31,167 nucleotides of DNA, taken from a virus (taxonomy: Duplodnaviria > Caudoviricetes). Under the pieces are notes generated by a model that saw only the letters and a program-made list of their open reading frames with translations, did not search any database and had not been told where the DNA came from. Positions 952-31,079 of the stretch are shown piece after piece. The position numbers were made by a program, and so were the translations under genes. The stretch lies in the IMG/VR virus record IMGVR_UViG_3300040985_000793, positions 1 to 31,167 of that record. One strand, 5' to 3'. The stretch's first letter is position 1. Every line of letters begins with the position of its first letter.

Positions 952-1347
952 ATGGCGAAACTGAACAAAGTATTCTTAATGGGCAACCTGACACGTGATG
1001 TGGAATTAAGGTACGTACCGTCAGGCGCAGCGGTGGCATCGTTTGGCATTGCTATCAATCGCAAGTGGAAAAGCGCAGATGGCGAAGTAAAAGAGGAAGT
1101 TATATTTGTTGAGGTGTCGATGTTTGGCACACGTGCAGAGGTAATTGCACAATATTTTGCAAAAGGCAATCCGATATTCATAGAAGGTCGTTTAAAATTC
1201 CAGCAATGGGAGGACAAAGACGGTGGCAAACGGAACGCCTTGAAAGTTGTGGCAGAGAATTTTGAGTTTATTGGTGGACAGGGTGGACAGTCCAGCCAGT
1301 CCGGATCGGGTGACAACGACATCAACGAAGAAGAAATCCCATTTTAG
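952..1347 (+). CDS. ssb: single-stranded DNA-binding protein
   Basis: LNKVFLMGNLTRDVELRY OB-fold start, IEGRL motif, Gly-rich linker, acidic C-terminal EEEIPF tail. Confidence 0.97.
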   Translation: MAKLNKVFLMGNLTRDVELRYVPSGAAVASFGIAINRKWKSADGEVKEEVIFVEVSMFGTRAEVIAQYFAKGNPIFIEGRLKFQQWEDKDGGKRNALKVVAENFEFIGGQGGQSSQSGSGDNDINEEEIPF

Positions 1348-3588: not shown

Positions 3589-3610
3589 CGATTAGTTTGG
3601 AGGATTACGA

Positions 3611-3841: not shown

Positions 3842-3860
3842 TATTATCTTTTTATTTTAA

Positions 3861-3891: not shown

Positions 3892-3895
3892 CAAC

Positions 3896-4658: not shown

Positions 4659-4666
4659 GAGAAAAC

Positions 4667-5496: not shown

Positions 5497-5553
5497 CAAT
5501 ATGACCTACTACAAAATATCATTCAGAGTGTTTAAGAAAATGGAGGAAGTGAA

Positions 5554-5826: not shown

Positions 5827-5835
5827 GTGCCATCC

Positions 5836-5903
5836 ATTCAAGGCGTATATGCGAGCAATCGCTTGATTCGAGAAAGGGAGTCGATGGGGTATGTGCCTTG
5901 AGT
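5836..5903 (+). ncRNA. candidate structured RNA (three-way junction)
   Basis: 14-bp closing stem ATTCAAGGCGTATA/TATGTGCCTTGAGT (with G-U pairs) enclosing GCGA-GCAA-TCGC and TTGATTC-GAGAAAGG-GAGTCGA hairpins; intergenic. Confidence 0.45.
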
Positions 5904-5945
5904 TGATAGTATTTATGTGCCTTAATTAGAAAAGGAAGGAGAAAA

Positions 5946-6326: not shown

Positions 6327-6547
6327 ACACTTATATCTGGACAAAAACAATTGAAGTTGATACAGAAGAAGTATATAACGCAGCGGCAGCGCAATCAAAG
6401 AGTGTTCTCAGATATTTATATGACAGCATTATTCCGGTATCCGCATATAAAAAAAATGTGGCAATTGAGGAAAATGAAGATATTAACAAGTTTGTAATCA
6501 GATACAATGATTCTCAGTACAGACCGAGGTATTACAATGGGAATTAA
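6323..6547 (+). CDS. hypothetical protein
   Basis: ATGA overlap with VRR-NUC; 74 aa. Confidence 0.55.
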   Translation: MNTYIWTKTIEVDTEEVYNAAAAQSKSVLRYLYDSIIPVSAYKKNVAIEENEDINKFVIRYNDSQYRPRYYNGN

Positions 6548-7760
6548 ACCAATAATAAAAGCATTGATTGTTGCGCTGGCTGTGGTCTTGCCATTGTATT
6601 TTGATACCACGATGACAAGGCCATTTGATACACCGAAGTTCTTTGCATTGATGATCGGGGCTGCTTGTCTGTTCGTATGTGTGATGTTTGACGGTAAATT
6701 ACTAGAACACAAATCACCTTTGTCATATCCAATTATTGCATTGTGGGTTGTTACCGGATTTGCAACATGGTTCTCAGTGCATCCCATGACCAGTTTAATT
6801 GGTGGCTCTAAGCGGTTTGACGGGTTTGTATCTGTGTCGGCTTACGTGTTTATTTTCTTTGTGGTTATCAATTACGTCAACATCCGGATGATTGGCATTA
6901 TATTCGAGGCACTTATCTGGACAGCGTTCTTGGCTTGTGTTTACGGGGTATGTCAATATATTGGACTTGAGGCGTTTGAATGGATCAGATGGGATGATAG
7001 AGTTTTTAGCACGTTTGGTCATCCTGCGTTCTTGTCAGCATTCTTGGCAATGGTGTTGCCTTTGGCTATACACAAGGCACTGACCAGCCATAGGGCTTAT
7101 GCGTTATTTGTGCCACTGTTCATTGCCGTGATATTTTTCACAAAAACAAGAGCAACTTTTGTTGGGATGGTAATATCAATGGCCGTGTTGGCTTGGGTCA
7201 TGCGGAAAAGAATCTTGACAAATTGGCGCACATCTGCTATATGCGCAGTTGTGATAGTAGTCATTTTTGCTTTCTTCTCAAAACCTTTAATAGTCAGGAT
7301 CATAAATGAAGTAGATTTAACAGAACAACAATCAGGTACGGCAGGGCCAAGAATCATTATGGCACGTGTAGGAATGTCCGTTGTCAGAGATCATCCTTTC
7401 TTGGGGGTCGGCCCAGATACATTGGGGTTCGTGTATATGGAACACTTGCATAAACTGTATCCGAATGGCATAAACGGGTGCGCCAGTTACAATCAGAGCA
7501 GGATACACAACGATTTTATTGATATGGCCGTGTCAAGGGGTATCATTGGCCTTTGCGTGTATGTGTGGCTGATTGTGACGTTCTTACGCATGGTATGGAA
7601 GCAGGGCAATATTGCATTGACTTGTGTTTGTGTCGGCTTGTTATCGTACATCGTGCAGAATCAATTCTCATTTGGGCATATATCGTTTATTATTTTATTC
7701 TGGGTTTATATGGGCATGGCAGTCGTGTTGTGCAGGGAAAAGGAAAGAGGAAAGAAATGA
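6537..7760 (+). CDS. O-antigen ligase-like polytopic membrane glycosyltransferase (WaaL/Wzy_C/PglL superfamily)
   Basis: About 11-12 hydrophobic segments; RVFSTFGHPAFL, TKTRAT, R......G.....HPFLGVG and HNDFIDMAVSRGIIGL motifs of the Wzy_C domain; GAGG RBS before ATG 6537. Confidence 0.88.
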   Translation: MGIKPIIKALIVALAVVLPLYFDTTMTRPFDTPKFFALMIGAACLFVCVMFDGKLLEHKSPLSYPIIALWVVTGFATWFSVHPMTSLIGGSKRFDGFVSVSAYVFIFFVVINYVNIRMIGIIFEALIWTAFLACVYGVCQYIGLEAFEWIRWDDRVFSTFGHPAFLSAFLAMVLPLAIHKALTSHRAYALFVPLFIAVIFFTKTRATFVGMVISMAVLAWVMRKRILTNWRTSAICAVVIVVIFAFFSKPLIVRIINEVDLTEQQSGTAGPRIIMARVGMSVVRDHPFLGVGPDTLGFVYMEHLHKLYPNGINGCASYNQSRIHNDFIDMAVSRGIIGLCVYVWLIVTFLRMVWKQGNIALTCVCVGLLSYIVQNQFSFGHISFIILFWVYMGMAVVLCREKERGKK

Positions 7761-8032
7761 GACATATTAAATTATTAGGATTAAAAGCTAAGGACAAAGT
7801 TACAGGTTTTGGGGGAGTAATAACAACACTGAGTTTTGACTTGTATGGTTGCGTTCAAGTTGTGATCACTCCAAAGGCAATTACAAGCACAGGCAAGATG
7901 GAACATGGTCAATGGGTTGATATTACAAGGCTTGAATTGAAAAGCAAAAAGCCTGTGATGGAAATTCCTAACTTTGAAAAGGGATACATTGCAGATGGTA
8001 AAAAAGGTTGTGCGGAAAAACCAGCACTGTAA
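7757..8032 (+). CDS. conserved hypothetical phage protein
   Basis: LGLKAKDKVTGF.G.....FDLYGC.Q...P...W.D..RL motif; ATGA-coupled start at 7757. Confidence 0.75.
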   Translation: MRHIKLLGLKAKDKVTGFGGVITTLSFDLYGCVQVVITPKAITSTGKMEHGQWVDITRLELKSKKPVMEIPNFEKGYIADGKKGCAEKPAL

Positions 8033-8044
8033 GAACTTAATAAA

Positions 8045-8326
8045 ATGGCAAAAGGCGAATTAAAAAACAGGATAAATAACATACTTGAGAAGTTGGTATA
8101 TTTTGCGCTGATCGGGTTGGCAGTATTTGTATTTAAAATAAATGCAAAGGTCAACACTATTGACGGCAATGCAAAGAAAATAGAGGCTCTTGAGCAGCGA
8201 CATACACAAGACAAGAACATACTGCACCAGAAAATATCAAAGGAAACCGATAAAATAACCGAATTACAACAGGCGGTGTCATCATGCAAAACCGCTATAA
8301 CCTTTTTGACAAAGGAACATCCATGA
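8045..8326 (+). CDS. N-anchored membrane coiled-coil protein (i-spanin-like candidate)
   Basis: One N-terminal TM (LVYFALIGLAVFVF) followed by a coiled coil with a Cys near the C-terminus. Confidence 0.5.
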   Translation: MAKGELKNRINNILEKLVYFALIGLAVFVFKINAKVNTIDGNAKKIEALEQRHTQDKNILHQKISKETDKITELQQAVSSCKTAITFLTKEHP

Positions 8327-8544
8327 AGAAACTCTTATTAGGTATGGGATTAATTGCAATCGTTTCAATGTCCGGTTGTTTGCCAGTGATTGTGGCAGGG
8401 GTAGGCGCAGTCGGTACTGTTGCAGCAGGGCGGTATAAGTACAAAGGGGATATTAAAAAGGCCGAGGCAATGATTGAGTTTAGGGATACCGTAGTCGATG
8501 AACTGGACAATATTAACAAACGTATTGACGAGGAAGGGTTTTGA
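8323..8544 (+). CDS. lipoprotein (o-spanin-like or exclusion-type candidate)
   Basis: MKKLLLGMGLIAIVSMSG-C lipoprotein signal, then a Gly/Ala/Val-rich segment; AAGGA RBS, ATGA overlap. Confidence 0.65.
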   Translation: MKKLLLGMGLIAIVSMSGCLPVIVAGVGAVGTVAAGRYKYKGDIKKAEAMIEFRDTVVDELDNINKRIDEEGF

Positions 8545-8586
8545 GAGTTTATAGAATTATAAAAAAAGGTTTAAAATGGTTGTATT

Positions 8587-8615
8587 TTGACAGTAAAAAA
8601 GAGGTTGTATGTTAT
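8587..8615 (+). promoter_or_regulatory. putative promoter upstream of the methylase/packaging operon
   Basis: Perfect TTGACA at 8587-92 with weak -10 candidates (TATGTT/TGTTAT) in a 140-bp AT-rich gap. Confidence 0.4.
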
Positions 8616-8684
8616 GTAAATTGTTTTAATCTTGCGAAAAATTGGTATTTATCACAATAAATATGATAAAACGGGGAACTGTAA

Positions 8685-8798
8685 ATGGGTGATGTGCCAC
8701 CATTGCACATGGTTATAATCGGGCTGTTCTCAGTGGGTGGCTCGTTGTTAATAAGCTGGATATTATTCGGGAAGGATGAAGAAAAGTGGAAAGACTGA
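8685..8798 (+). CDS. small membrane peptide, 37 aa (MGDVPPLHMVIIGLFSVGGSLLISWILFGKDEEKWKD)
   Basis: Read manually; GGGGA RBS; one TM helix; overlaps the methylase start. Confidence 0.5.
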   Translation: MGDVPPLHMVIIGLFSVGGSLLISWILFGKDEEKWKD

Positions 8799-10006
8799 AA
8801 TGGCATACAGAAACGAGAACGATTGAACAGCTTGTGCCGTATGACAAGAATCCAAGAAGGTTGTCTGATAAGCAATATGAAGATTTAAAAGCCTCATTGA
8901 CGAAGTTCAGCCTTGCAGAAATACCCGTTATTGATGCTGACGGGGTTATCATCGCTGGACACATGCGTTTGAAGGTACTGGCCGAAATAGAAACGCCTCA
9001 TTTCGAGGTTGATGTTCGTGTTCCAAACCGGAAACTTACTGAGAAAGAGTTCCAAGAATATAACATCAGATCGAATAAAAACACAGGCGAGTTCGATTTC
9101 GATATTCTTGCAAATGAGTTTGACGTTGATGACCTGCTGGATTGGGGATTCGAGGCAGAGGAATTGCTTGGGTTTGAGGATGAAGAAACACCGACAGGCG
9201 ATGACGATGCAACACCAGACCCGCCAGCCGTTCCAAGAAGCCAATTGGGGGATTTATACGAGCTTGGCAATCATCGTGTGTTGTGTGGGGATAGTACCGA
9301 TAAAGAGATTGTCGCGGTGCTGATGGATGGGGACAAGGCGAATATGGTGTTTACTGACCCGCCTTATGGGGTTGATTATTCAAATGCGGAAAGACCAAAC
9401 CCGTCAAAGATTGATCTTGGAAAGATTAAAAATGATAATATTGATTTGTCCGAGTTCTTGCCATGTATATTTGGGAATTTATATTCATTTTCTGTTGAAG
9501 ATTGCGCTTTCTATATTTGGCATGCTGATAAAACAGCACATATTTTTTATAAAAGCGTTGAAGAATCAGGGATTGAATTTAATCAAATGTTGATATGGAA
9601 AAAGCCAATGTTGCTTGGTCGGGGAAAATATCAATACGCACATGAGCCGTGTATATTTGGAATAAAAGGAAGCCCGTTTCATACAAACGACAGAACGAAA
9701 ACAACCGTGTGGGATTTTGGGGGATACGACAAGTCAGGTAATGTCCATCCAACCCAAAAACCAGTATTCATTCCAGAGGAAGCAATAAATAATTCATGCA
9801 AAAAAGACTCAACTCACAAGCGAGGTGGCATTGTCCTTGACCTATTCCTCGGCTCAGGCTCAACCTTAATCGCTTGCGAAAAGACAAAGCGCAGGTGTTA
9901 CGGCATGGAATTAGACCCTCAATATGTTGATGTAATTGTGCAGAGGTATGTGGAGTATACAGGAAATAATAAGATTAAATTGAATGGAGGATCAATCGAA
10001 TGGTGA
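8786..10006 (+). CDS. ParB/Srx N-terminal domain fused to an N6-adenine/N4-cytosine DNA methyltransferase
   Basis: NPR...IIAGHMRL ParB domain; HRVLCGDST, FTDPPY, HPTQKP and VLDLFLGSGSTLIACEK motifs; typical position upstream of terminase. Confidence 0.95.
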   Translation: MERLKWHTETRTIEQLVPYDKNPRRLSDKQYEDLKASLTKFSLAEIPVIDADGVIIAGHMRLKVLAEIETPHFEVDVRVPNRKLTEKEFQEYNIRSNKNTGEFDFDILANEFDVDDLLDWGFEAEELLGFEDEETPTGDDDATPDPPAVPRSQLGDLYELGNHRVLCGDSTDKEIVAVLMDGDKANMVFTDPPYGVDYSNAERPNPSKIDLGKIKNDNIDLSEFLPCIFGNLYSFSVEDCAFYIWHADKTAHIFYKSVEESGIEFNQMLIWKKPMLLGRGKYQYAHEPCIFGIKGSPFHTNDRTKTTVWDFGGYDKSGNVHPTQKPVFIPEEAINNSCKKDSTHKRGGIVLDLFLGSGSTLIACEKTKRRCYGMELDPQYVDVIVQRYVEYTGNNKIKLNGGSIEW

Positions 10007-10167
10007 TTGACTCAATACTTCAACCGAAGGTGTTTAACTATATAATCATGGGGTTGTATTGTGTGAATTCATTCTGGTGGTTGTATCATGGCAAGTATGC
10101 AGATTGTTGTTATTGGCTATCAGCATTGGCAATTACAAGCACTGTTACATTCGGTTATAATAGATAA
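10000..10167 (+). CDS. small membrane protein, 55 aa (MVIDSILQPKVFNYIIMGLY...)
   Basis: Read manually; GGAGG RBS; two hydrophobic segments. Confidence 0.55.
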   Translation: MVIDSILQPKVFNYIIMGLYCVNSFWWLYHGKYADCCYWLSALAITSTVTFGYNR

Positions 10168-10191
10168 AAACAACTTAAATAACTTAATAAA

Positions 10192-10551
10192 ATGGCCGTT
10201 ACAATAAAACAAATCAAACAGGCGTTGAAATCAAGTTTTAATAAGCCAGTATATGCGGCTGAAAAACTTGGCATTACATATAATGCGTTATATGATAGAG
10301 TTCAGAAATCAAAGGACTTGCAGCGATACCGTGAGGAATTAGATGAACGTAATCTGGACTTCACCGAGATAGCATTGATGAAGGGAATCAAGAAGGGTGA
10401 TTCTCAGCTTATAAAATATCATTTGAATACAAAAGGCAGAAAGAGGGGATACGGTGAAAAGACAGAGGTTGAATTGTCCGGAGAGGTCAAAGGCAATTCA
10501 CCACAGTATCACGTAAACTTCACATCAAATCCCAAGAACGATGGTGACTAA
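10192..10551 (+). CDS. terS: terminase small subunit (putative)
   Basis: HTH-like AAEKLGITYNALY, KGRKRGYGEK.EVELSG motif; directly upstream of and overlapping terL. Confidence 0.8.
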   Translation: MAVTIKQIKQALKSSFNKPVYAAEKLGITYNALYDRVQKSKDLQRYREELDERNLDFTEIALMKGIKKGDSQLIKYHLNTKGRKRGYGEKTEVELSGEVKGNSPQYHVNFTSNPKNDGD

Positions 10552-11746
10552 GACAGTTGACTTTTACATGCCTGATAAGGCGGTTGAAATTATCGGGTCA
10601 GATAAGCGTGAGAAGGTTCTTGAGGGTGGTCGGGGTTCAGGTAAGTCATATAGTTTTGCTGATGCGCTGGTTGTTCGTGCTGCACGTGAAGAACTCCGGA
10701 TACTATGCACAAGGGAAACACAGAAGTCTATCAAGGATTCAGTGCATAAACTACTGTCTGACAGAATAAGCGCACTTGGCCTTGATGGTTATTTTGATAT
10801 AAAAAAAGATACAATACGATCAAGCACGGGTTCAGAGTTTATATTTAAGGGCCTGCGCCATAATATCACTGAGATAAAGTCAACAGAGGGCATTGATATA
10901 TGCTGGGTTGAGGAAGCTGAGAAGGTCACGGCTGATTCATGGGATGTATTAATCCCCACTATAAGGAAAGAAGGTTCTGAAATATGGGTGTCATTCAATC
11001 AGGAGTCAAAAGATTCGGCAACACGGTCAAGATTTATTGAGAATCCGTCACCGTTTTGTATATCGGCTCACATGACGTACCGAGACAACAAGTATTTTCC
11101 TGATGTGTTACGGCAGGAAATGGAATATGACAGAGTAAACGATCCGGAAAAATACGAGTGGGTTTGGGAAGGTGGCCTTAAAAAGTACCATGATGCAGTT
11201 ATTTTTACAAAGGTCTTTGAGGAAGAATTTGAAACGCCAGAGGGAGTGGACATATTATTTGGTTGTGATTTGGGTTTTGCCAATGATCCTCTTGCCCTTG
11301 TGCGTGGTTTTATTATCAATCGTGATTTGTTCATTGATTACGAGTTTTATGCAGTTGGTGTTGAGAACACTGAACTTCATGCAGCGTTCAATACAATTCC
11401 TAATATTCGGGAAGGTAGGATAAGGGCAGACTGTTCAAGACCGGAAACGATTAGCTATCTACGAGGCAACGGCGGCAGGAACGGTGATATTGAGGGGTTT
11501 GATGTTATCGGTGAAGGTAAGCTGAAAATTGAAGAAGGTATTCAATATCTAAAAGGGTTTGAGCGTATTGTTATACATCCGAGGTGTAAAGGAACGCTTG
11601 ATGATTTTAAAAATTATAGATGGAAGCAGGATAGATTGACAAAGGAAATTTTACCAGTGCCAGTGGATAAGTCAAACCATTCTCCGGATGCTGTCCGGTA
11701 TATGTTGAGGCCACTGATTAGCGTGAAAAAATGGGGGGCTGGGTAA
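10541..11746 (+). CDS. terL: terminase large subunit, PBSX/SPP1-like family
   Basis: Walker A GGRGSGKS, Walker B ICWVEEA, nuclease GCDLGFANDP and NHSPDAVRY. Confidence 0.97.
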   Translation: MVTKTVDFYMPDKAVEIIGSDKREKVLEGGRGSGKSYSFADALVVRAAREELRILCTRETQKSIKDSVHKLLSDRISALGLDGYFDIKKDTIRSSTGSEFIFKGLRHNITEIKSTEGIDICWVEEAEKVTADSWDVLIPTIRKEGSEIWVSFNQESKDSATRSRFIENPSPFCISAHMTYRDNKYFPDVLRQEMEYDRVNDPEKYEWVWEGGLKKYHDAVIFTKVFEEEFETPEGVDILFGCDLGFANDPLALVRGFIINRDLFIDYEFYAVGVENTELHAAFNTIPNIREGRIRADCSRPETISYLRGNGGRNGDIEGFDVIGEGKLKIEEGIQYLKGFERIVIHPRCKGTLDDFKNYRWKQDRLTKEILPVPVDKSNHSPDAVRYMLRPLISVKKWGAG

Positions 11747-11922
11747 TGCCTAAAAAAAAGATGTGCAGACAGCGTGGAAAGCAACAAATACACTTATTCC
11801 ATAACGAGAAGCCATTCGATTGGCAGCAATGTTATTGCAAACGGTTTAGATATGCAGAACTGAAACAGATTGCAACGGATAATTTGATAAAAGAAAAGGG
11901 CGAGAGCATTGAAAGCGTGTAA
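11746..11922 (+). CDS. hypothetical protein
   Basis: TAATG overlap with the terL stop; C/H...CYC pattern. Confidence 0.5.
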   Translation: MPKKKMCRQRGKQQIHLFHNEKPFDWQQCYCKRFRYAELKQIATDNLIKEKGESIESV

Positions 11923-12106
11923 CGGGTATACATCTGTCAAATTGTATGAGGGGCAACCATTCGCATTTGCATGTGATCTGTCAGAAACTTATATAAATGA
12001 TCAAGATTGGAACACGATGATTGACATTAGTTGTCAATGTGGAAAGAGGCACAAATTACATCGAGACATATTGACACTTAGAACGGGGGAATATCTTGGG
12101 AGTTAA
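11909..12106 (+). CDS. hypothetical Cys-containing protein
   Basis: TTG start; CQCGKRH; fills the gap before portal. Confidence 0.45.
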   Translation: MKACNGYTSVKLYEGQPFAFACDLSETYINDQDWNTMIDISCQCGKRHKLHRDILTLRTGEYLGS

Positions 12107-13328
12107 GAACTTTCTGAAAAAAGCAATGAATACGCTGGTGCAGGGTAACGCACAGCATCCGGAGGCCAGTTGGTATGCGCTTGACTTGCCACGCACGAAC
12201 TTTGATTATGCAAGCGAAGTGGGAACGGGGCTGAAATCTAATGTTATCATGTCACCGATTAACTGGATTATGCGGACATTTCCCGAAGCAGAGTTGATAT
12301 TAAAAAGAAAACTCAAAGACGGTGGCACTGATCAGTTGTTCGAACATGCCTTTCTGGACATAATGGAAACGCCGAATGAGGCTTATGGCTACGAGGAACT
12401 GATTGCAGCCGTGACGTTATCACACAACATTGCTGGTAATGCGTATATACTCAAGGTTCGTAACGGTGTTGGAATGGTCATTGCGTTGTGGTACTTACCT
12501 CACTGGATGGTGCAGCCTTGTGGCACAGAGGGCAGCACCTCGGTCTATATCAGCCATTATGTATATAATCCTAATGGGATTCAATACCGAATTAATATCG
12601 AGGACATCATTCATATCCGTAATGGTATTGATCCGGAAAACACACGTGTGGGGCTTAGTCCATTGGCCTCGGTAATCCGTGAAGTGTTCACCGATGATGA
12701 AGCAAGTAATTATTCAGCCACTATGCTTAGAAATATGGGTGTTGTAGGTGCGGTTATATCACCGAAGGAAAATGTAAATCTTGGCCCGAAGGAAATAATT
12801 GAGATAAAAGAAAAATTCAAGAAATCATTCACGGGTGATAATAGAGGCGATCCGCTTGTTATGACAGGGCCAACGCAGATTGACACGCTTGACCTTGACC
12901 CGTCAAAGATGGGGCTTGCTGAGACAAGGAACATATCAGAGGAACGTGTCACGGCTTGTCTGGGTATCCCTGCGGCAGTTGTAGGTTTTGGCACGGGCTT
13001 ACAGTCCACAAAAGTGGGTGCAACAATGTCTGCCATGATTAAGCTGGCATGGACTGGAAACATAATCCCAACACAGAGAAAAGTAGCAAAAGCGTTACAG
13101 CGTCAATTGCTTGTAGATTTTGAGCTTGACAAAACACTGCTGGTCTGCTATGACAATTCAAATGTGGCAGCAATGCAGGAGGATAAAGACGCACGTGTTA
13201 AGCGTTTGAGCGATGGTGTCACAAAGGGATGGGCGAAGGTTTCAGACGCAAGAGCAGCGGAGGGGCTGGCCGTTGAAGATTCTGACAAGGTTTATTTGAG
13301 GCCGTTGAGTATTGTTGAGGCTGAATAG
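12096..13328 (+). CDS. portal protein (HK97-like family)
   Basis: GNAYI, IIHIR...GLSPL, GIPAAVVG motifs; position after terminase. Confidence 0.93.
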   Translation: MGVKNFLKKAMNTLVQGNAQHPEASWYALDLPRTNFDYASEVGTGLKSNVIMSPINWIMRTFPEAELILKRKLKDGGTDQLFEHAFLDIMETPNEAYGYEELIAAVTLSHNIAGNAYILKVRNGVGMVIALWYLPHWMVQPCGTEGSTSVYISHYVYNPNGIQYRINIEDIIHIRNGIDPENTRVGLSPLASVIREVFTDDEASNYSATMLRNMGVVGAVISPKENVNLGPKEIIEIKEKFKKSFTGDNRGDPLVMTGPTQIDTLDLDPSKMGLAETRNISEERVTACLGIPAAVVGFGTGLQSTKVGATMSAMIKLAWTGNIIPTQRKVAKALQRQLLVDFELDKTLLVCYDNSNVAAMQEDKDARVKRLSDGVTKGWAKVSDARAAEGLAVEDSDKVYLRPLSIVEAE

Positions 13329-13330
13329 AC

Positions 13331-14143
13331 ATGGCGATTACTTTAACAGAAGAAATTGCAATCAGGTCTGCGCCTAAAAAGAGGCCATCACGCAAGCAGG
13401 TTAAGTTTGCAAGGCAGCTTGATACCGATATTTTAAAATATTCAAAGCAGTTTGCACGGGATTTGGTTGAGGTTCTTGATGATTTTGGCAGAGAGTTGGA
13501 ACGTGCGACACTTGAGGTAATAGATACAGAGAAGAATATTGGCGAGGATTCAGTTCACGCTGGTCTGATCGTTGAGGAACTTGATATTGCTGGGTTTGAA
13601 GTCAGTATGGCTCAAGTATACGAAAAGAATTATAAACGCATTATGAGGGCAACCGAGGCAAGATCAAAAGCAACGCTTGACCTTTCAATATCAATAGTAG
13701 ATGATACAGAGGCCCAGATACTTTCAAGCATTACAGATCGCATCGGGTTAATGGACATTGAGAAAACTACCAAGCGTAAAATCTTTGAGCAGCTTGGTGA
13801 AGGTCGGCTTGACGGTGAAAGTGTTCCACAGTTGGCCCGTAGAATACGAGAGTTTGTGCCATCCGGTAGATTTAAAAAAGCATCAACAAGGGCAAAGTTA
13901 ATAGCACGAACCGAGGCAACACACGCACAAAAGATGTCTGCGGCAGCCTCATACAGTGCAAATGGCGTTCAAGAAGTAATGATAATGGATAACCGACTTG
14001 GTGAAGCGGATATGGAAACCGATCCGGAATGCATTTTGCTAGTTGGTAAAGTGGTCAGCATTGAAGAAGGTGTTGCTTTAATGGATGAAGAACATCCAAA
14101 CGGAACGAGGCGCATGGTAGCAATGCCACCGCCAGTGGAATAA
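13331..14143 (+). CDS. head morphogenesis protein (MuF/SPP1 gp7-like)
   Basis: RAKLIARTE and HPNGTR (variant of HPNCRC) motifs; follows portal. Confidence 0.85.
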   Translation: MAITLTEEIAIRSAPKKRPSRKQVKFARQLDTDILKYSKQFARDLVEVLDDFGRELERATLEVIDTEKNIGEDSVHAGLIVEELDIAGFEVSMAQVYEKNYKRIMRATEARSKATLDLSISIVDDTEAQILSSITDRIGLMDIEKTTKRKIFEQLGEGRLDGESVPQLARRIREFVPSGRFKKASTRAKLIARTEATHAQKMSAAASYSANGVQEVMIMDNRLGEADMETDPECILLVGKVVSIEEGVALMDEEHPNGTRRMVAMPPPVE

Positions 14144-14149
14144 ATACAC

Positions 14150-14347
14150 ATGAAAGAACACAAAGATTGGATACAAATTGGAATTGCTTGTTATGTTGCA
14201 GGGATAATTGCATATCTTGTCGTTACAAAGACGGGAACGGCAGAGGGAATGATTAAACCGGACATTGTATATACATTTTTTACAGGTGTATTTGCAACCA
14301 AGATTGTTGATTTCGCTTACAAAGCAATCACTAAAAACAAACCATGA
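14150..14347 (+). CDS. small two-TM membrane protein (holin-like)
   Basis: Two hydrophobic helices and a basic C-terminus; 65 aa. Confidence 0.5.
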   Translation: MKEHKDWIQIGIACYVAGIIAYLVVTKTGTAEGMIKPDIVYTFFTGVFATKIVDFAYKAITKNKP

Positions 14348-14469
14348 ATATAATTTTTCCTATATTTGCATTCATTGCAGTATGTGTATGCGGTGTGATA
14401 CATGCGCATAATGCTATAAAAGAACACGAAAATAATATGGATTATATTAATAAAATTAATCGGGGGTAG
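14344..14469 (+). CDS. small membrane peptide, 41 aa (MNIIFPIFAFIAVCVCGVIHAH...)
   Basis: Read manually; ATGA overlap with the upstream ORF; ends just before the protease. Confidence 0.4.
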   Translation: MNIIFPIFAFIAVCVCGVIHAHNAIKEHENNMDYINKINRG

Positions 14470-14473
14470 TTAT

Positions 14474-15232
14474 ATGGATGTCAAATCGTTTAACGTGAAA
14501 CTGGAAACAGATGTAAAGGCATTGTCAAAGGGCGAGGGCCGTGCGGTAATTGCTGAATTTAACAAGGTGGATCATGATGGCGATGTGACTCTTGCAGGGG
14601 CTTTTGGGAAGCAGCATGTAAATATACTACCTGCACATGATAGGTCTGCGCCACGATTAGGCAAGGCCATATTGACTGAGGCTGGTGAGAGGGCTATTGC
14701 AGAGTTTAAATTTAACCTTGATGCTGATGCAAAGACCGCCAAAGAATGGCATTCAGCACTCAAGTTTGACATGGAGAATGGTGAACCATTACAAGAATGG
14801 TCTTATGGATTCAAGATAATAGATTCATCATTCGGTGAGTTTGAAGGAAAACAGGTCAGGTTTTTGAAGCAGCTTGACGTTATTGAAATTAGTCCGGTGC
14901 TACGAGGTGCAGGAACAAGCACAGGGACACTGGCAATTAAAAGCAAAGGCATGACATACACAGACCAGATGAAACAGGCCACCGCATCCCTTGATGATGT
15001 AAAGGCTTTTATTGAGCGTTCTCAGTCCCTTGCCGACTTGAAAGCGAAAGACGGAAACTCTTTATCAGAAGAACAACTAAAAACATTGGTTATGTTCTCA
15101 ACTTCTCTTGATGAAGTTGCAGCAAAATACATGGATTTGGTAAGTCAGCTGACGAAGGGTGCAACGGATGTTGATGAAGTGCATGAATTATTGGCACGAT
15201 GTCAACGTACTGAAATTAGAACACGGGTATAA
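14474..15232 (+). CDS. HK97-type prohead maturation protease
   Basis: DHDGDV...GAF, catalytic H (PAHD), WSYGF and EISPVLRGA motifs; helical C-terminal extension. Confidence 0.92.
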   Translation: MDVKSFNVKLETDVKALSKGEGRAVIAEFNKVDHDGDVTLAGAFGKQHVNILPAHDRSAPRLGKAILTEAGERAIAEFKFNLDADAKTAKEWHSALKFDMENGEPLQEWSYGFKIIDSSFGEFEGKQVRFLKQLDVIEISPVLRGAGTSTGTLAIKSKGMTYTDQMKQATASLDDVKAFIERSQSLADLKAKDGNSLSEEQLKTLVMFSTSLDEVAAKYMDLVSQLTKGATDVDEVHELLARCQRTEIRTRV

Positions 15233-15264
15233 AACCTATATTATTAATCTATAAGGGGAGCGTA

Positions 15265-16542
15265 ATGAAAGAACTATTAGAAGCGCAAGCAAAACTTGCA
15301 GCAAAACAGAAGAATATGAAGGGTATCTGGGATGAAGCTGGTGCAGATACAGATTTATCACTTGTTAAATCAAACGGTTTTCCTGAGTTGGGTGATACAA
15401 AATCCAGAGTCAAGAGAATCAGCGAACTTGATGCAGAAGTCAATGACCTGTTTGACGATGTAAAGGCATTACAGGAAGTGGCAGCATCAAAGAAATCCAC
15501 AGCAGACCGTGAAAAAATGCTCAATAGTGCAGTTGCGTCTGTTGTTCATCCACAGGGTAATGATGGTGCTGCGGTTGCTAAGGCTGGTCAGGTTATCGTT
15601 CCTAAATCATTGGGTGCGCAGTTTATCGAATCAAAGGCGTATCAAAACAGGTTTGGCAAAGAAGAAGCCATCATCGGCCTTGAAACTAATCCGGAAAATG
15701 TAAAGACAATATTCAGCACAACTGCTGGTTGGAGTCCTGAGTCAACACGCACAGGAAGATTAGTATTGGATGCACAGAGGCAGCCAGTTGTTACTGATCT
15801 TTTGAGAACGTCAAACACTAATCAGAATGCAGTTGTATACATGGAAGAAACAACTTTTACCAATGCTGCGGCAGAGGCAACAGAAGGTGCGGCAGCAGCA
15901 GAAGCGGCCCTTGTTTATACTGAACAATCCGTGTCAGTTGTAAAGATTGCCGTGTTTATTCCTGTTACAGAAGAAATGCTTGAAGATGAAATGAGAATTG
16001 CATCTTTAATTGATGGCCGTTTGAGGTTCATGATGGCACAGAGATTGAGCTTGCAGATTCTTACAGGTGACGGTGTTGCGCCTAATCTTGAAGGTATATT
16101 GAATAAATCCGGTATTCTAACACAGGCGAAAGGTGCTGACGAAATTGAAGCGGCTATCTATAAAGCCATGACACAGGTGAGGGTAACTGGTCAGGAAATA
16201 CCAGATGCATACGTTACGCATCCTAATGACTGGCAGCAGATCAGGTTGAGGACTACATCAGACGGTATATATATCTGGGGTTCTCCGAGTGAAACAGGTA
16301 CGCCAAGAATATGGGGTTTGCCAGTTATACAGGAGCAGGCACAGACAGAAAATACAGGTCTTGTTGGTTCATTCGCAAACCCTGCAAATGTTGAGCTTGT
16401 GCATCGTTCTGGTGTTGCAGTCAAGATGTCAGACAGCCATGATGATTACTTTACAAAAGGTAAAATGGCAATCAAAGCAACACAGAGAGTGGCAATGCCA
16501 ATTGGCAAGATAACTGCTTTCTGCACAGTAACAGGCATATAA
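15265..16542 (+). CDS. major capsid protein, HK97 fold
   Basis: N-terminal coiled-coil delta domain; KIAVFIPVTEEMLED, ILTGDG..PNLEGILN, HPNDW and IWGLPV motifs. Confidence 0.96.
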   Translation: MKELLEAQAKLAAKQKNMKGIWDEAGADTDLSLVKSNGFPELGDTKSRVKRISELDAEVNDLFDDVKALQEVAASKKSTADREKMLNSAVASVVHPQGNDGAAVAKAGQVIVPKSLGAQFIESKAYQNRFGKEEAIIGLETNPENVKTIFSTTAGWSPESTRTGRLVLDAQRQPVVTDLLRTSNTNQNAVVYMEETTFTNAAAEATEGAAAAEAALVYTEQSVSVVKIAVFIPVTEEMLEDEMRIASLIDGRLRFMMAQRLSLQILTGDGVAPNLEGILNKSGILTQAKGADEIEAAIYKAMTQVRVTGQEIPDAYVTHPNDWQQIRLRTTSDGIYIWGSPSETGTPRIWGLPVIQEQAQTENTGLVGSFANPANVELVHRSGVAVKMSDSHDDYFTKGKMAIKATQRVAMPIGKITAFCTVTGI

Positions 16543-16572
16543 GCAATATTAATATTGTTTAGATAATTCTAT

Positions 16573-16612
16573 TTGTTCCCGTTCCGAGAGGTTCGGGAAC
16601 AACTTTTCTTCT
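16573..16612 (+). terminator. rho-independent terminator/attenuator after the capsid gene
   Basis: TTGTTCCCG...CGGGAACAA inverted repeat (16573-16602) followed by CTTTTCTTCTT. Confidence 0.7.
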
Positions 16613-16635
16613 TCATTCAATCGGGAGGTGTTCAG

Positions 16636-17592
16636 ATGTTAAGATTTTTCAAACGTAATGCAGGGCCAGTGATAGCATTGTTCCTTGTATTAGTAATGTG
16701 TGCAGGGGCGTATGCTGGGCGCAGACAGATATGGAGGGCGGTCAAGATTGGATATGCTGCAACGTCAGCAGGTTCAATTCTGTCAGCCGTTACTGATACT
16801 GGATCGACTCAAACAATCACGACAGGCATCAATAAGCTGGTAAGGCATAGCAGGATTACAGCAACCGCAGGAGGTACAGCAGGAGATATTGCAGCAGCTT
16901 CCGTTCAGTTGATTGGTACTGATCCAAATGGAACTGCTATTTCAGAAACATTGCCAGCGTTCACAGTCAATACTACTGGAAGTGTAACATCTGTAAAAGT
17001 CTACAAGACAGTGACAAGCGTTCATATACCTGCACATGATGGCACTGGTGCAACTACAAGCATTGAGCAGGCTGGTGGGCCAAATGCAGGGACAACAGAA
17101 ACTGTTATTGCAGCGGTGACAGATACAGGCGCACAGCAGACAGTGACAACGGGAACTTCTATCAATCATTTGGATGTGCCGAGAAACATAACAGCATCAG
17201 CACACGGTACAGCAGGAGATATTGCAGCAGTGTCAGTTATTGTTGCAGGTACTAATGTCGAAGATAAAGCTATTTCAGAGACATTGTCAGCGTTCACGGT
17301 GAACACGCAAGGTGTTGTTACTGGTGCAAAGGTATTTAAGACAGTGACAAGTGTAACAATGCCTGCACATGATGGCACTGGTGCAACCACTTCCATTGGG
17401 ACAGGTGACGTTCTTGGAATTGGGTACAGGTTGAAGCGTAACACAACTAGAAATGCTTATCTTGCTGAAACGGTAGAAGGTACATCGCCTACTATTACAA
17501 TTGATGCGGATGACATTGAGAGCAATGGCGCAGATTTGAACAGTGCGCTTGATAGCACGCAGGTGATTCTTGAATTTATGGAAACACCTTAA
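16636..17592 (+). CDS. Thr/Ala/Gly-rich decoration-like protein with signal peptide and internal duplication
   Basis: GGGAGG RBS before ATG 16636; MLRFFKRNAGPVIALFLVLVMCAGAYA signal; two ~111-aa repeats (GTAGDIAA...ISETL.AFTVNT.G.VT..KV.KTVTSV..PAHDGTGATTSI). Confidence 0.8.
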   Translation: MLRFFKRNAGPVIALFLVLVMCAGAYAGRRQIWRAVKIGYAATSAGSILSAVTDTGSTQTITTGINKLVRHSRITATAGGTAGDIAAASVQLIGTDPNGTAISETLPAFTVNTTGSVTSVKVYKTVTSVHIPAHDGTGATTSIEQAGGPNAGTTETVIAAVTDTGAQQTVTTGTSINHLDVPRNITASAHGTAGDIAAVSVIVAGTNVEDKAISETLSAFTVNTQGVVTGAKVFKTVTSVTMPAHDGTGATTSIGTGDVLGIGYRLKRNTTRNAYLAETVEGTSPTITIDADDIESNGADLNSALDSTQVILEFMETP

Positions 17593-17605
17593 TTGATTTA
17601 TTTCT

Positions 17606-17646
17606 TGTGGCTCAGATGGTTCAATCCATCTGGGTCATGGGTTTTT
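17606..17646 (+). terminator. stem-loop, possible terminator
   Basis: GGCTCAGATGG-TTCAAT-CCATCTGGGTC hairpin with G-U pairs, followed by GTTTTT. Confidence 0.55.
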
Positions 17647-17659
17647 AATGGGAGAAAGA

Positions 17660-19648
17660 ATGTTTAAAAGACTAATATTGGGAGTTTTATTTGTCACACT
17701 GGTTTCTGTTTCTGTCAGTGCGGCATTGCTTGATCCTGTTACGAACTTTGCAAAGGGAACAGTAAATACTACATACGATTCAACCGCAACGAGTATTGTA
17801 TTATCATCTGGTGATGGTGCAAACTTTCCGTCAACATTTTCATACAATGTTATCTGGTGGAATGCGACTGATTATCCTGACCCGTCAGACGATCCGAACA
17901 AGGAAATTGTGAGAGTGTCCGGTAGAACTTCCGACACGCTGACTGTTACAAGGGCGCAGGAAGGAACGACAGCATCAACAAAAAACACTTCTGGAAAGAC
18001 TTATTTAATGGTTCTAGGTATCACGAAGAAAGTCATTGATGATATTGACTTATTCTTTGTGGGTACAAATAGCACTCAAACAATAACGAATAAGACAATT
18101 GACACGGCGAACAACACCATCACTGTTGTCGAGGCAGACATTAGTGACCTTACACATACGACAGGCACACCAGAGGGAACTGCGATACTATCAACCGGAG
18201 AAGTGGGAGGCACAAAGTTTTTAAGGGAGGATGGTGATAATACTTGTAGCTGGCAACTTCCTTCTGTGAATAGTGCTACACTGGCCCTTGATAACCTTGC
18301 CGCAGTTGCGGTGAACACTGCAATTATTTCAGATACAGATATTACAGATGACTTTGGCACAGGTGATATACGTTGGAAAGATGTGTATGCGCAGGGCATA
18401 AGGGCAGGATTAACCGCCTTTGATACTACAACTATTAGTGCAAGGGATGTTGATGGCGCAGCATGGACTGATTTTATTACGGTAACGAGTTCGAACACTC
18501 CAACATGCGTGATTGCCAGTGATGTAACGGCAACAACACAAACAGCAGCAGATAATTCAACGAAGATTGCAACAACGGCTTATGCTGATGCAGCGGCTGG
18601 CGGTGGTGGTGCAAATACGGCATTGAGTAACCTTGCAGCGGTGCAGATCAATTTGAGTTTAACGTCAGATACAGATATTACAGATGATCTTGGAACGGGC
18701 GATATTAGATGGAAAGACTTATACGCAAGTGGTGCAAAGTCAGGTTTAACTGCTGCTGATACGTTGATTTTGAGTGCAAGGGATGTTGATGGCGCAGCAT
18801 GGACTGATTTCATTACACTTACGTCAAATAATACACCAACATGCGTGATTGCCAGTGCGGTTACTGGTACAACGCAATCTGCCTCTGATAATTCAACGAA
18901 GCTGGCAACAACGGCTTATGCGGATGCTGTATCTCCTACAAGTATTGACACTGGAACTGTTGACTATTCAAGCAGGAGTATAACGGTTGATACTGGTGGA
19001 ACGCTTGACATTAACCTTGGCACTGCTGCTGGTGACGATTTCACTGTTGATACAAATACCTTTGTTGTGAATGGTACTAATGGCTATGTTGGGTTAGGTA
19101 CTAATTCTCCAAATCATCAATTTTCAAATAATGGTGGTTCGTTTGCAAATCTTGATGCAGCTACGGGATTTTACTGGACAGGAGGGGCCGCTTCAAAATA
19201 TGCGGCTGGTTATAGAACTGGTTCTGATCCGGGCTGGGCAATGGGGATTAAGATTGGTATAACCGATCCAGATGATACAGACTTCTACATTCATTTCTTA
19301 GACGATCAAGGCAATGTTGAAGGTAGTATTTCTGGTAAATCAGGCGGTGGTGGTGTGCAGTTAAATGATGCGTCTGATGAAAGATTAAAAGAAAATATTG
19401 TTGATACTTCAAAGGGCCTAGCAACGATAAATGCAATAAAGGTGCGTGACTATAACAAGAAAGGATTACAAACAACGGTAACAGGCTTTATTGCTCAGGA
19501 GTTAAAAGAAGTTGTTCCAAATGCGGTGCATGTTCCTTCTGATCCAAGTAAAATGATGTCTGTTGCAACAAGTGAATTAATACCTATTCTTATTAAGGCT
19601 GTCCAAGAGTTGGATGCGAAGATAAAAATATTAGAAGCAAAACCATAG
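17660..19648 (+). CDS. fibre protein with N-terminal signal peptide and C-terminal peptidase S74 intramolecular chaperone
   Basis: MFKRLILGVLFVTLVSVSVSA signal; EIVRV....DTLTVTRAQEGT domain; DNSTKIATTAY fibre motifs; VGLGTNSP; SDERLKENI...GFIAQE...V...LIPILIKAVQEL S74 domain. Confidence 0.88.
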   Translation: MFKRLILGVLFVTLVSVSVSAALLDPVTNFAKGTVNTTYDSTATSIVLSSGDGANFPSTFSYNVIWWNATDYPDPSDDPNKEIVRVSGRTSDTLTVTRAQEGTTASTKNTSGKTYLMVLGITKKVIDDIDLFFVGTNSTQTITNKTIDTANNTITVVEADISDLTHTTGTPEGTAILSTGEVGGTKFLREDGDNTCSWQLPSVNSATLALDNLAAVAVNTAIISDTDITDDFGTGDIRWKDVYAQGIRAGLTAFDTTTISARDVDGAAWTDFITVTSSNTPTCVIASDVTATTQTAADNSTKIATTAYADAAAGGGGANTALSNLAAVQINLSLTSDTDITDDLGTGDIRWKDLYASGAKSGLTAADTLILSARDVDGAAWTDFITLTSNNTPTCVIASAVTGTTQSASDNSTKLATTAYADAVSPTSIDTGTVDYSSRSITVDTGGTLDINLGTAAGDDFTVDTNTFVVNGTNGYVGLGTNSPNHQFSNNGGSFANLDAATGFYWTGGAASKYAAGYRTGSDPGWAMGIKIGITDPDDTDFYIHFLDDQGNVEGSISGKSGGGGVQLNDASDERLKENIVDTSKGLATINAIKVRDYNKKGLQTTVTGFIAQELKEVVPNAVHVPSDPSKMMSVATSELIPILIKAVQELDAKIKILEAKP

Positions 19649-19696
19649 ATGTTATTAATGATCCGGATTGATCTTAAATAAAAAAGGAAAAATATC

Positions 19697-20557
19697 ATGA
19701 ATAGAATATTGTTTTTAGCGTTGATTGTGTTTGTAGGATTTGGAGGGGTTGCGGATGCTGCATTGTCAAACAGGGGAACGGTTGAGCTAGAGGTTTCACG
19801 TGGTAATGTATCCGGAATGTCATCCGTCAATAAGTTTGCCGAAAATATTGAAATTGATTCTGGTGTAACTGCTGACGTATGGGATGGCGGTCACACATTG
19901 GCAAGTGGTGGCGTGTCTCTTTTGTGGGTTGCGCCGACACAGGCAAGGATTCACCAGTTAGTATCAAGCAGCACAGATGACGATGGTTCTCCGGCAGGCA
20001 TCGGCGCATTGACTGTAAAGGTGTGGTATTTACCTGATTGGGATACGGTAGAAACATCAACAACGGTCACGATGGATGGGACAACAAATGTTGCATTACC
20101 TGCATGTGTGATTATAAACAGAATGGAGGTTATGACAAAAGGCGCATCAGGGCCAAATGTTGGAATTATAAAAGCCACCGCTGACACAGACGGAACAATT
20201 TCAAGCCAAATACGTGCAGGTCAAGGACAGACACAGCAATCTGTCTTTGGTTTTGCATCAACACAGACATTGTATCTGTGCAATATGTATTCGTATGCGA
20301 ATAAAGCTGGCGGTGCGTCAGGTTTGGTTGACATGACTCTTTTGTATAATGGCGAACCAGATACAGAACTTACAAAATTTGTAACAAAGTTTACAATGGG
20401 TATGCAAACGGTTGGCCTTTCCGGTAGCAATCATGGGTGGTGTTTGCCAAGATCGTTTGACGGCCCTGCAATAATAAAAATCGGGTGTGTGTCAGGTACA
20501 AATGACATGGATATTTCTGCTGGTTTCAGTGGTTATTTGTTAAATGACACATGGTAA
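19697..20557 (+). CDS. beta-rich structural/decoration-like protein with signal peptide
   Basis: MNRILFLALIVFVGFGGVADA signal; AAGGA RBS; VNKF..N...VWDGG and SSSTDD...G.GA.TV motifs resembling phage structural proteins. Confidence 0.75.
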   Translation: MNRILFLALIVFVGFGGVADAALSNRGTVELEVSRGNVSGMSSVNKFAENIEIDSGVTADVWDGGHTLASGGVSLLWVAPTQARIHQLVSSSTDDDGSPAGIGALTVKVWYLPDWDTVETSTTVTMDGTTNVALPACVIINRMEVMTKGASGPNVGIIKATADTDGTISSQIRAGQGQTQQSVFGFASTQTLYLCNMYSYANKAGGASGLVDMTLLYNGEPDTELTKFVTKFTMGMQTVGLSGSNHGWCLPRSFDGPAIIKIGCVSGTNDMDISAGFSGYLLNDTW

Positions 20558-26192: not shown

Positions 26193-26885
26193 ATGGTTTA
26201 TGGTGGTTATGGATACGGCACAACGCCATACGGTGGCAGGACTGGTGGCAAGAGGGTATTGTCAAACGTGTTTTCTCTACCGAACACAACAACGCAGATG
26301 AAGTCGGTGCGGTTTGGAAGGTCTGAAAATACAGAAGTGTTTGAAAGTCCTATCTCCGGAAGTGTTCAGACTGCCGAATTAACCGGAGGCAAGTGGATGG
26401 CTACGTTTAGCCTTGTAACATTAACACGGGCAGAGGCTCAGGCATGGATTGCGTTCTTGATAAAATTACGGGGTATGTCAGGGCGTTTCTATGCACATGA
26501 CCCGTCAAACGTGTCAGCACTTGGGAGTTTGACTGGTAGTGCGCCAGTTGTCAATGGAGGAAGTCAGACAGGAGACTCATTGCTGGTGTCAGGATTTGCG
26601 CTATCAACAACAGGCGTTTTGCTTGCAGGGGATGCTATTTCATTTGACACTGCCACATGGAGGGAAAGGCATATTGTGACAACTGATGTTGATTCTGACA
26701 GTTCCGGCAATGCTACAATTCCACTTGCGTTCCCGATCCGTGAAAGTCCAATCCAAAGCGATCCAATTGTGACCACACGTGCATCTTGTATTATGAGGCT
26801 TGCAGATAATGACCAAGCGTTCTGGGATGTTCAACAGGCATTGAGGTTTGGTATACAGTTTACAGGTGTGGAGGTTTTTAAATAA
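26193..26885 (+). CDS. distal tail protein (Dit-like)
   Basis: FESPISGSVQT....G.W.A......R.EA..W.AFL..LRG..G.F..HDP; ends F..VE; follows TMP. Confidence 0.8.
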   Translation: MVYGGYGYGTTPYGGRTGGKRVLSNVFSLPNTTTQMKSVRFGRSENTEVFESPISGSVQTAELTGGKWMATFSLVTLTRAEAQAWIAFLIKLRGMSGRFYAHDPSNVSALGSLTGSAPVVNGGSQTGDSLLVSGFALSTTGVLLAGDAISFDTATWRERHIVTTDVDSDSSGNATIPLAFPIRESPIQSDPIVTTRASCIMRLADNDQAFWDVQQALRFGIQFTGVEVFK

Positions 26886-30753: not shown

Positions 30754-31079
30754 TGGCAAAGACAGGCGTTAATTATAATAAAATAACGGGTGAGATAGGC
30801 AGGGTGGTTATTGTGTCGAAGGATAGTGACTTGACACTTAATAAACAACACGGAATGACCTTGATGGAGGTGGCCGCCGATCATCCGTGCGTAGGTCTGC
30901 CGGATGAATACGAAGTCAAAGAATACGAAGTCAAAGAAGGCAAAGTCAAAGAAGGCAAAGTCAAAGAAGGCAAAGTCAAAGAAGGCAAAGTCAAAGAAGG
31001 CAAAGTCAAAAAGAAAACCGCAGCACGTATCAAAAAAGAGAAGAAAGAAAAGGCCGACAAAAAGAACATTATAATCTAA
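30753..31079 (+). CDS. hypothetical protein with Lys/Glu tandem repeat (possible tail-tip accessory)
   Basis: TAATG overlap with the J stop; YNKITGEI motif; (E[Y/G][E/K]VK)x7. Confidence 0.65.
   Translation: MAKTGVNYNKITGEIGRVVIVSKDSDLTLNKQHGMTLMEVAADHPCVGLPDEYEVKEYEVKEGKVKEGKVKEGKVKEGKVKEGKVKKKTAARIKKEKKEKADKKNIII
30906..31010 (+). repeat. 15-bp tandem repeat, 7 copies
   Basis: 2 x GAATACGAAGTCAAA then 5 x GAAGGCAAAGTCAAA. Confidence 0.95.

Follow-up and report, generated by a model that had tools for sequence, protein, structure and literature searches.

Sec-type leaders on three consecutive genes of a probable anammox phage suggest virion appendages that are exported before they join the particle

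The window, i.e., the whole 31,167-nucleotide stretch of phage DNA analysed here, carries an HK97-type siphophage gene set that includes portal, S78 protease, PF05065 capsid, tape measure, distal tail, and central fibre genes. Between the gene for the HK97-type major capsid protein (15265..16542, + strand; PF05065 E 1e-34; phrog_10) and the adaptor region (from 20906 onward), three genes lie on the same strand within the late operon, namely, gene A (16636..17592, 318 aa), gene B (17660..19648, 662 aa), and gene C (19697..20557, 286 aa). All three begin with tripartite, Sec-type leaders, in agreement with the location and leader structure given in a preliminary description of this DNA. A terminator-like hairpin between A and B (17604..17641, + strand; a 16-bp stem with a T run 3′ of it) is a possible, weak indication of a step-down in expression, as terminator-like sites occur at chance level (4 vs 3.0 in shuffles).

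Leaders were called with a self-made rule and inspection by eye, the cut-offs having been set after these genes were known. The n-regions of A, B, and C are basic (+3, +2, and +1, respectively), each protein has an uncharged 11-residue stretch (mean Kyte-Doolittle values of 3.41, 3.09, and 3.25), and small residues occupy the −3/−1 sites. Cleavage is predicted after residue 21 in B and C (leaders at 17660-17722 and 19697-19759) and, in A, after residue 25 by our rule or 27 according to the preliminary description (leader at about 16636-16716). The net charge of the mature N-terminus is 0 in B and C and +4 in the first 18 mature residues of A. Inspection of the translations by eye revealed neither a twin-arginine motif nor a lipobox in the three proteins, and no second membrane anchor was found in them. 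Each chosen ATG is preceded by a Shine-Dalgarno-like element, which for B means a start at 17660 rather than at the first ATG (17648). Across 23 late genes, the rule was passed only by A, B, C, and a tail-tip protein (27856), the last of which we take to be a false positive with an Ala/Gly-rich N-terminus; the portal, capsid, neck, tube, and distal tail proteins have no leader. The preliminary description had argued that three such leaders in a row are unlikely to be due to chance.

Gene B encodes a probable trimeric side tail fibre. Its C-terminal S74 chaperone domain (about 19373-19531) matches PF13884 (Peptidase_S74; E 3e-12) with a score above the family cut-off, tail-fibre PHROGs are matched as well, and the leader is followed by an N-terminal virion-anchor domain (about 17723-18058) and a shaft with a repeated segment. 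The N-terminal domain matches the solved tail fibre PDB 8JOV (18 chains; E 3e-6), which we take to be a putative tail fibre of Ralstonia phage GP4. B therefore resembles S74 (CIMCD) chaperone tail fibres in both its C-terminal domain and its homologous N-terminal anchor but differs from them in that it carries an export leader and in that its gene lies among the head genes, about 6.5 kb away from the predicted dock. The placement of all three products in the head-decoration slot thus held for gene position, whereas B, being an S74 tail-type protein, is probably a side tail fibre and not a head decoration.

The predicted dock is a Tyr/Gly motif formed by residues 1-18 (26193-26246, + strand) of the leaderless distal tail protein (26193..26885, + strand; phrog_1302 E 1e-37). 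Genes with this motif lie directly 3′ of genes with a B-type N-terminal domain in 13 of 67 loci. A complex model of the B trimer with the motif, built on self-made alignments and hence outside the calibration of the tool, scored 0.79, compared with 0.03 for the best of three controls; the pass mark was reached by 116/157 solved pairs vs 2/215 mismatched pairs. The runs shared at least 81% of contacts, with a partner pLDDT of at least 59, and the pass may reflect 8JOV-like structures that the model had memorized. B retains the invariant residues of the anchor, which make up the modeled interface. On the basis of this model, we predict that the distal tail protein is bound by the B trimer through its residues 1-18.

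Gene A is predicted to encode, behind its leader, a tandem jelly-roll (AF2 pLDDT 96), and gene C a jelly-roll with an inserted domain (phrog_8198 E 5e-14; AF2 pLDDT 92). The structural matches of A are generic jelly-rolls, all with Z<8, and its likeness to cement or decoration proteins lies in the fold (Z 5.8 to 3J4U, a generic match) and in the gene slot after the capsid gene; among 42 loci with a detected capsid gene, 39 have the A-family gene immediately 3′ of it. C matches viral, TNF-like, and cement jelly-rolls (Z 8-10), again generically; its matches to the cement and decoration proteins of KHP40 (7DOU), Pam1 (7EEL), and BPP-1 (3J4U) and to the HFTV1 turret (8QPG) are at Z 7.6-8.5, and the gene position of its family varies. 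A and C are likely capsid decorations, C probably as an accessory virion protein. To our knowledge, known cement proteins are made in the cytoplasm. Neither A nor C had a Pfam or NCBIfam family or a PDB sequence match; their Atlas matches were unnamed viral clusters only, for which the cluster look-up gave no name. Among annotated phages, A had one weak match, and C matched two records of one phage.

Most relatives of these proteins lack a leader (115/120 for B, 93/120 for C, and 67/104 rows for A), leaders being present in 27/120 relatives of C and 37/104 rows of A. After removal of 21 residues from B, the conserved NFA motif falls at index 7, within the index 5-9 from Met1 at which it occurs in 108/120 relatives, so that cleavage would regenerate the usual leaderless N-terminus; in C, cleavage places its motif at 24, the family mode being 25-29. 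Leaders conserved in cytoplasmically assembled homologues, which the preliminary description had counted against export, were therefore not what we found. DNA comparison of three leaderless loci revealed a Shine-Dalgarno element directly 5′ of the leaderless Met. As judged from these comparisons, the leaders are add-ons to the A, B, and C families. In quick IQ-TREE and FastTree runs, the leader on A switched state at least 12 times over the 104-row tree; strong branches force 9 of these switches, and one common clade of leader-bearing A was rejected (AU p 2e-61). The leader sequence diverges across relatives while its composition is kept. Some other A leaders are atypical, in that 11 rows are labeled non-basic and a group of high GC content has Arg or Asp at the −3 position.

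Leaders also tend to occur together. They were found on 14 of the 71 neighbours of leader-bearing C genes vs 5/364 for other C genes, or, counted by locus, in 9/11 vs 5/53 (Fisher p 3e-6, which is optimistic because the loci are partly related); these neighbours often occupy the post-capsid slot, in phages that are unrelated. Clustering around leader-bearing A was weak (2/9 vs 2/79 loci; p 0.05), and in two related phages (L036 and L038) both A and a divergent C bear a leader. This pattern indicates that leaders are a genome-level trait. A disulfide rationale for export was rejected on the basis of the absence of Cys enrichment in the leader-bearing forms of A (p 0.12) and C (p 0.78); the Cys of the A leader is not conserved.

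Taking these observations together, we consider it moderately probable that A, B, and C are exported by Sec and then attached to the particle at or after lysis. The leaders would direct the three proteins to the host Sec pathway and so to the periplasm, the probable site of their cleavage and folding; at lysis or later, the B fibre and the likely decorations A and C would be added to a particle built in the cytoplasm. We infer that the proteins are exported and cleaved, that A and C bind the capsid, and when attachment takes place. Candidate benefits are that sticky, surface-binding parts would be kept out of the assembly compartment and that virion parts would gain access to periplasmic glycosylation.

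The phage comes from a marine setting. Its SSB gene (952..1347, + strand), used as a host marker only, has top matches of 66-70% identity from hydrazine-synthase-positive genomes in a search set without other PVC phyla, and the host is probably a Scalindua-like anammox bacterium. Marine anammox bacteria are key players in ocean nitrogen loss, and no phage isolate of anammox bacteria appeared among the 20 of 77 literature titles on anammox phages that were listed; our finding points to a phage of this group. Among 132 anammox-class genomes, there was no clear spacer-like match to positions 1-20000 of the window, gene A was absent, and the gene C family occurred once, as a leaderless copy. A syntenic prophage of an anammox-class genome lacks A, B, and C altogether, and thus the cassette is dispensable in this phage family. 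Fragments of the capsid gene, A, B, and C were found in two RNA libraries, on low-depth contigs that may be DNA.

That optional character would also suit exported proteins that act on an infected cell or a lysogen, or outside it, in receptor masking or as decoys or adhesins, and never join the particle, a role that the preliminary description had offered beside late attachment. One study (PMC10367356) proposes that phage proteins with signal peptides modify the host surface, and a Wzy_C gene of this phage, described below, suggests envelope remodelling. However, B retains the anchor residues of the predicted interface and the leaderless distal tail protein retains the docking motif, A, B, and C have no lipobox or second membrane anchor, and the genes sit in the late operon with promoter-like sites at chance level (12 vs 10.7 in shuffles). 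We therefore favour late attachment and regard a purely host-surface role as rather unlikely.

Similarly improbable, in our assessment, is that the leaders serve as membrane anchors, uncleaved or cut by another protease, which would fix the proteins, and with them the head or tail, at the inner membrane while the protein bodies stay cytoplasmic. A fits this reading best, with a charge of +3 before and +4 after the hydrophobic stretch and with relatives that have a neutral or acidic n-region or a non-canonical −3 residue. A strongly basic mature N-terminus hampers Sec export in E. coli, for which the net +4 of A would be unfavourable. Prohead proteases are suggested in PMC10367356 to cut capsid proteins at ends that resemble signal peptides. 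However, the basic strand in the mature part of A also occurs in leaderless relatives and so looks structural, and B and C combine basic n-regions with neutral mature ends and canonical −3/−1 sites. Very unlikely is export into the anammoxosome or membrane vesicles, whereby particles would encounter the exported proteins within a compartment or exit membrane-wrapped without lysis. The probable anammox host and a planctomycete phage for which non-lytic, possibly vesicle-linked release is reported (PMC10945688) agree with such a route, but the leader trait extends to unrelated phages and a Cellulophaga phage, and holin-like and lipoprotein genes were recognized by eye at 8045-8544. Least likely of all, internal starts (TTG at codon 23 in B and C, ATG at codon 21 in A) would yield cytoplasmic forms that lack the leader and decorate the particle, the leader form being minor or incidental, but by eye no Shine-Dalgarno element accompanies these or other alternative starts within the first 45 codons, and the leaders keep their composition while diverging in sequence.

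In the accepted view, tailed-phage particles are completed in the cytoplasm. Phage proteins that use host export include the filamentous phage coat proteins pIII and pVIII and the Sec or SAR endolysins, but these are membrane-assembled inovirus parts or lysis enzymes, whereas A to C would be soluble appendages on a tailed particle that is built in the cytoplasm. Our literature search, largely confined to the main text of freely available papers, revealed no account of tailed-phage virion parts that are exported by Sec. The closest likeness that we found is in Cellulophaga phage phi18:3 (GenBank KC821620), in which three consecutive proteins, gp085 to gp087, have classic Sec-type leaders and are annotated as structural by MS/MS detection; the literature search found no discussion of those leaders. 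Unlike the phage described here, phi18:3 has a Bacteroidota host, and it belongs to a different phage family. If the favoured route of export and late attachment is true, mounting of exported fibres or decorations at lysis would be a final step of assembly that has not been described before and that is apparently widespread among uncultured phages; annotation pipelines would then wrongly label such genes as host-surface morons. The idea is directly testable with the B fibre domain, which has alleles with and without export and for which a short docking peptide is predicted on a tail protein of the cytoplasm.

A membrane enzyme of the Wzy_C family (O-antigen ligase/O-oligosaccharyltransferase) is encoded at 6507..7760 (+ strand; PF04932 E 3.5e-19). 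It shares 40-42% identity with genes from Scalindua-probe-positive genomes and so is apparently host-derived, lacks the TPR tail of the host copy, and also occurs in a related phage (G287). The host orthologue lies near prepilin genes in 2/2 genomes, and no pilin gene adjoins the phage copy. In its Wzy_C domain and its length of about 420 aa the phage protein resembles TfpO, TfpM, and PglL (PMC9829042, PMC11841053), from which it differs in being phage-borne and in having no adjoining pilin. The domain includes His334 and is common to WaaL ligases, hence it is not diagnostic, and the enzyme might glycosylate exported proteins. As a general requirement for leaders, Wzy_C was not supported, having been found in only one of five records with leader-bearing C, namely, the close relative G287; a viral-contig scan with Wzy_C gave no match. 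We offer as a doubtful but conceivable extension a two-compartment anammox phage whose exported fibre and decorations are O-glycosylated by the captured (or host) Wzy_C and mounted at lysis, with leaders as a module that was gained and lost many times and switches appendages into this route. Leader-bearing C showed no difference in Ser/Thr or G-S/T content. In leader-bearing A, Ser/Thr content was 23.8 vs 20.3% and G-S/T dipeptides numbered 3.8 vs 3.2 per 100 (p 0.025), values from related rows that give only a hint of glycosylation.

A single viral contig of 31,167 bases carries an HK97-type siphophage, in which terminase, portal, S78 protease, capsid, neck, tape measure, distal tail, and central fiber genes were identified with Pfam and PHROGs. 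Genes A (16636 to 17592), B (17660 to 19648), and C (19697 to 20557) come after the capsid gene (15265 to 16542), and their products each begin with a basic n-region and a hydrophobic stretch (KD 3.41, 3.09, and 3.25, respectively), with a small-residue cleavage site closing the leader. Shine-Dalgarno-like elements precede the three starts, and none was seen by eye at their internal alternative starts. A home-made leader rule, whose cutoffs were set after A, B, and C had been seen, was passed by 4 of the 23 late genes, namely, these three and a tail-tip protein taken as a false positive. The proposal in the preliminary description that three consecutive leaders are real rather than due to chance was borne out.

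All three products are members of known protein kinds. B is a fiber with a C-terminal S74 chaperone, and its N-domain is homologous to the solved tail fiber 8JOV (E value of 3e-6). The model of A (pLDDT 96) has a small base that bears two jelly-rolls, and its fold matches are generic only (Z < 8). A capsid gene was detected in 42 of 108 family A loci, and in 39 of these the A gene comes directly after it; A is therefore likely a head decoration. For C, the model (pLDDT 92) shows a jelly-roll that contains an insertion and is similar to viral, TNF-like, and cement domains (Z of 8 to 10).

Sequence comparison indicates that the leaders are add-ons to these proteins. Among the best 120 of 335 matches to the B N-domain, only the five closest carry a leader, one being a truncated copy identical to gene B; a conserved motif lies 5 to 9 residues from Met1 in 108 of the 120, and removing 21 residues from B places it at position 7. 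Leaders are present in 27 of the best 120 matches (of 338) to C. The family A alignment had 104 rows, consisting of the window protein plus 103 matches taken from the 120 listed (of 1,570); the record of the window itself, near-duplicates, and rows of odd length were excluded. Labeled by hand, 37 of these rows bear a leader; in the tree, the leader state switches at least 12 times, 9 of them forced by strong branches, and a single leader clade was rejected. Gene callers underlie some leaderless calls, and a genuine leaderless start was found in three loci compared by DNA. Prophages of Bacillota, Actinomycetota, Chloroflexota, and others also carry A genes without a leader. One family A clade (P0060, P0076, P0079, P0097, P0101, P0104, P0106, and P0113) has hydrophobic leaders without a basic n-region, which may be reverse membrane anchors. 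Several high-GC phages (L001, L030 to L034, L039, L041, and L052) carry a leader on A only, which has Arg or Asp at position −3 from the junction; close relatives have no such leader.

The leaders are also a trait of certain phage genomes. Across 64 distinct C loci (of 79), leaders were found on 14 of 71 genes neighboring leader-bearing C versus 5 of 364 neighboring leaderless C; 9 of 11 versus 5 of 53 loci had such a neighbor (P = 3e-6, which is optimistic because the loci are partly related). The same test was weak for A (2 of 9 versus 2 of 79 loci; P = 0.05), and B offered one leader-bearing locus only. In the related phages L036 and L038 (capsid 53 to 55% identical), both A and a divergent C bear leaders, and three apparently unrelated phages (L123, L132, and L147) have leader-bearing genes just after a capsid gene judged probable by eye. 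In 14 of 67 B-type loci (L239, L245, L251, L252, L254, L255, L260, L264, L265, L268, L270, L271, L276, and L309), a short leaderless anchor gene is directly followed by one for a leader-bearing, mostly large protein, an arrangement that may pair an anchor in the cytoplasm with an exported partner.

On balance, we favor as the likeliest reading that A, B, and C would be exported via Sec and that the exported parts would be attached at or after lysis. Like A, B, and C, gp085 to gp087 of Cellulophaga phage phi18:3 begin with classic leaders, and they are annotated there as structural proteins detected by MS. For A, the leader could possibly be a membrane anchor with the body facing the cytoplasm, given the +4 mature N terminus and the atypical leaders of some A relatives. 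An export route for virion parts of tailed phages was not found described in the literature searched; excerpts of three papers mention phage signal-peptide proteins without a tie to virion appendages (PMC10367356, PMC5723332, and PMC4615864), and an excerpt of another reports non-lytic phage release in a planctomycete (PMC10945688). As far as the literature was searched, Sec export with late attachment would be an undescribed variant.

The distal tail protein (26193 to 26885) has no leader and starts with a Tyr/Phe-Gly motif (26193 to 26246) shared with otherwise unrelated virion proteins at 19 loci in alignment A4. A gene starting with this motif directly follows the B-type N-domain gene in 13 of 67 distinct loci; anywhere in the locus, such a gene was found in 19 of 67 (some spurious), with background counts of 10 of 79 and 5 of 108 loci. 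The motif seems to be a portable dock for the B-type fiber anchor. A complex model of three B N-domains with residues 1 to 32 of the distal tail protein scored 0.79, versus 0.03 for the best control; 116 of 157 solved pairs reached the score mark, as did 2 of 215 mismatched ones, figures only roughly valid for this job. Runs shared at least 81% of contacts (partner pLDDT of at least 59), and the modeled interface comprises residues 6 to 11 of mature B and invariant family positions. The score may be memory of a similar solved complex; even so, it says that a virion anchor is kept in B, which is the main argument against a role purely at the host surface.

As reasons for export, disulfides were unsupported, and glycosylation is a lead only. 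In Kuenenia, the S-layer carries O-glycans at probable G-T/S sites (PMC5088730, excerpt), and such dipeptides number 4.8 per 100 residues in mature A versus 0.7 in the capsid protein. The phage carries a gene for an enzyme (6507 to 7760) with the Wzy_C domain, which is present in all O-linking transferases; these act in the periplasm (PMC9829042, excerpt). Its host orthologue in Scalindua-like genomes is TPR-tailed, shares about 40% identity with it, and has prepilin genes nearby in both genomes read. A related phage keeps the phage gene (G287:C1:781-2046; 30% identity). The putative enzyme may modify host pili, in superinfection exclusion, or exported phage proteins. Against the glycosylation rationale count four unrelated leader-bearing phage records in which no Wzy_C gene was found, the G-S/T richness of leaderless A, and the lack of enrichment in C. 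Since pilin glycosylation is a known antiphage defense (PMC11841053, excerpt), superinfection exclusion would be a simpler role for the gene.

The five best matches of the phage SSB (952 to 1347), used as a host marker, among 151 Planctomycetota genomes are 66 to 70% identical. Each of the five genomes encodes a hydrazine synthase alpha domain, and an anammox 16S probe site is present in four. No SSB match at an E value of ≤1e-38 occurred in two other phyla, for which 93 and 201 genomes were searched. Of 132 anammox-class genomes, 23 contain a match to the Wzy_C gene (best, 40 to 42%); an exact Scalindua probe site is present in four tested matching genomes, three among the four best. An integrated prophage (G163:C12:1268-20050; L211 and L212) in a genome with a hydrazine synthase domain is syntenic with the window (capsid 54%). 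Together, these matches make a Scalindua-like host probable. That prophage lacks the A-B-C cassette, and the only gene in its post-capsid slot encodes 88 amino acids, has no leader, and has a start similar to that of family A members lacking a leader. No clear spacer-like match to positions 1 to 20000 was found in the 132 anammox-class genomes. Within the replication-initiator gene, 44 bases (4377 to 4420) match several of this class at 84 to 90%, twice in G222, and may be a low-complexity Lys/Glu tract.

Identical pieces of the contig occur in seawater metagenomes. Positions 1 to 40 look like a Nextera adapter remnant, which makes the left end an assembly edge. No endolysin was recognized among the 30 window proteins scanned (Pfam and PHROGs); a holin-like gene followed by a small lipoprotein-like gene was seen by eye at 8045 to 8544. 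The product of a small gene after the tail tip (30753 to 31079) contains KEGKV-type repeats in tandem, and its C terminus is very basic.
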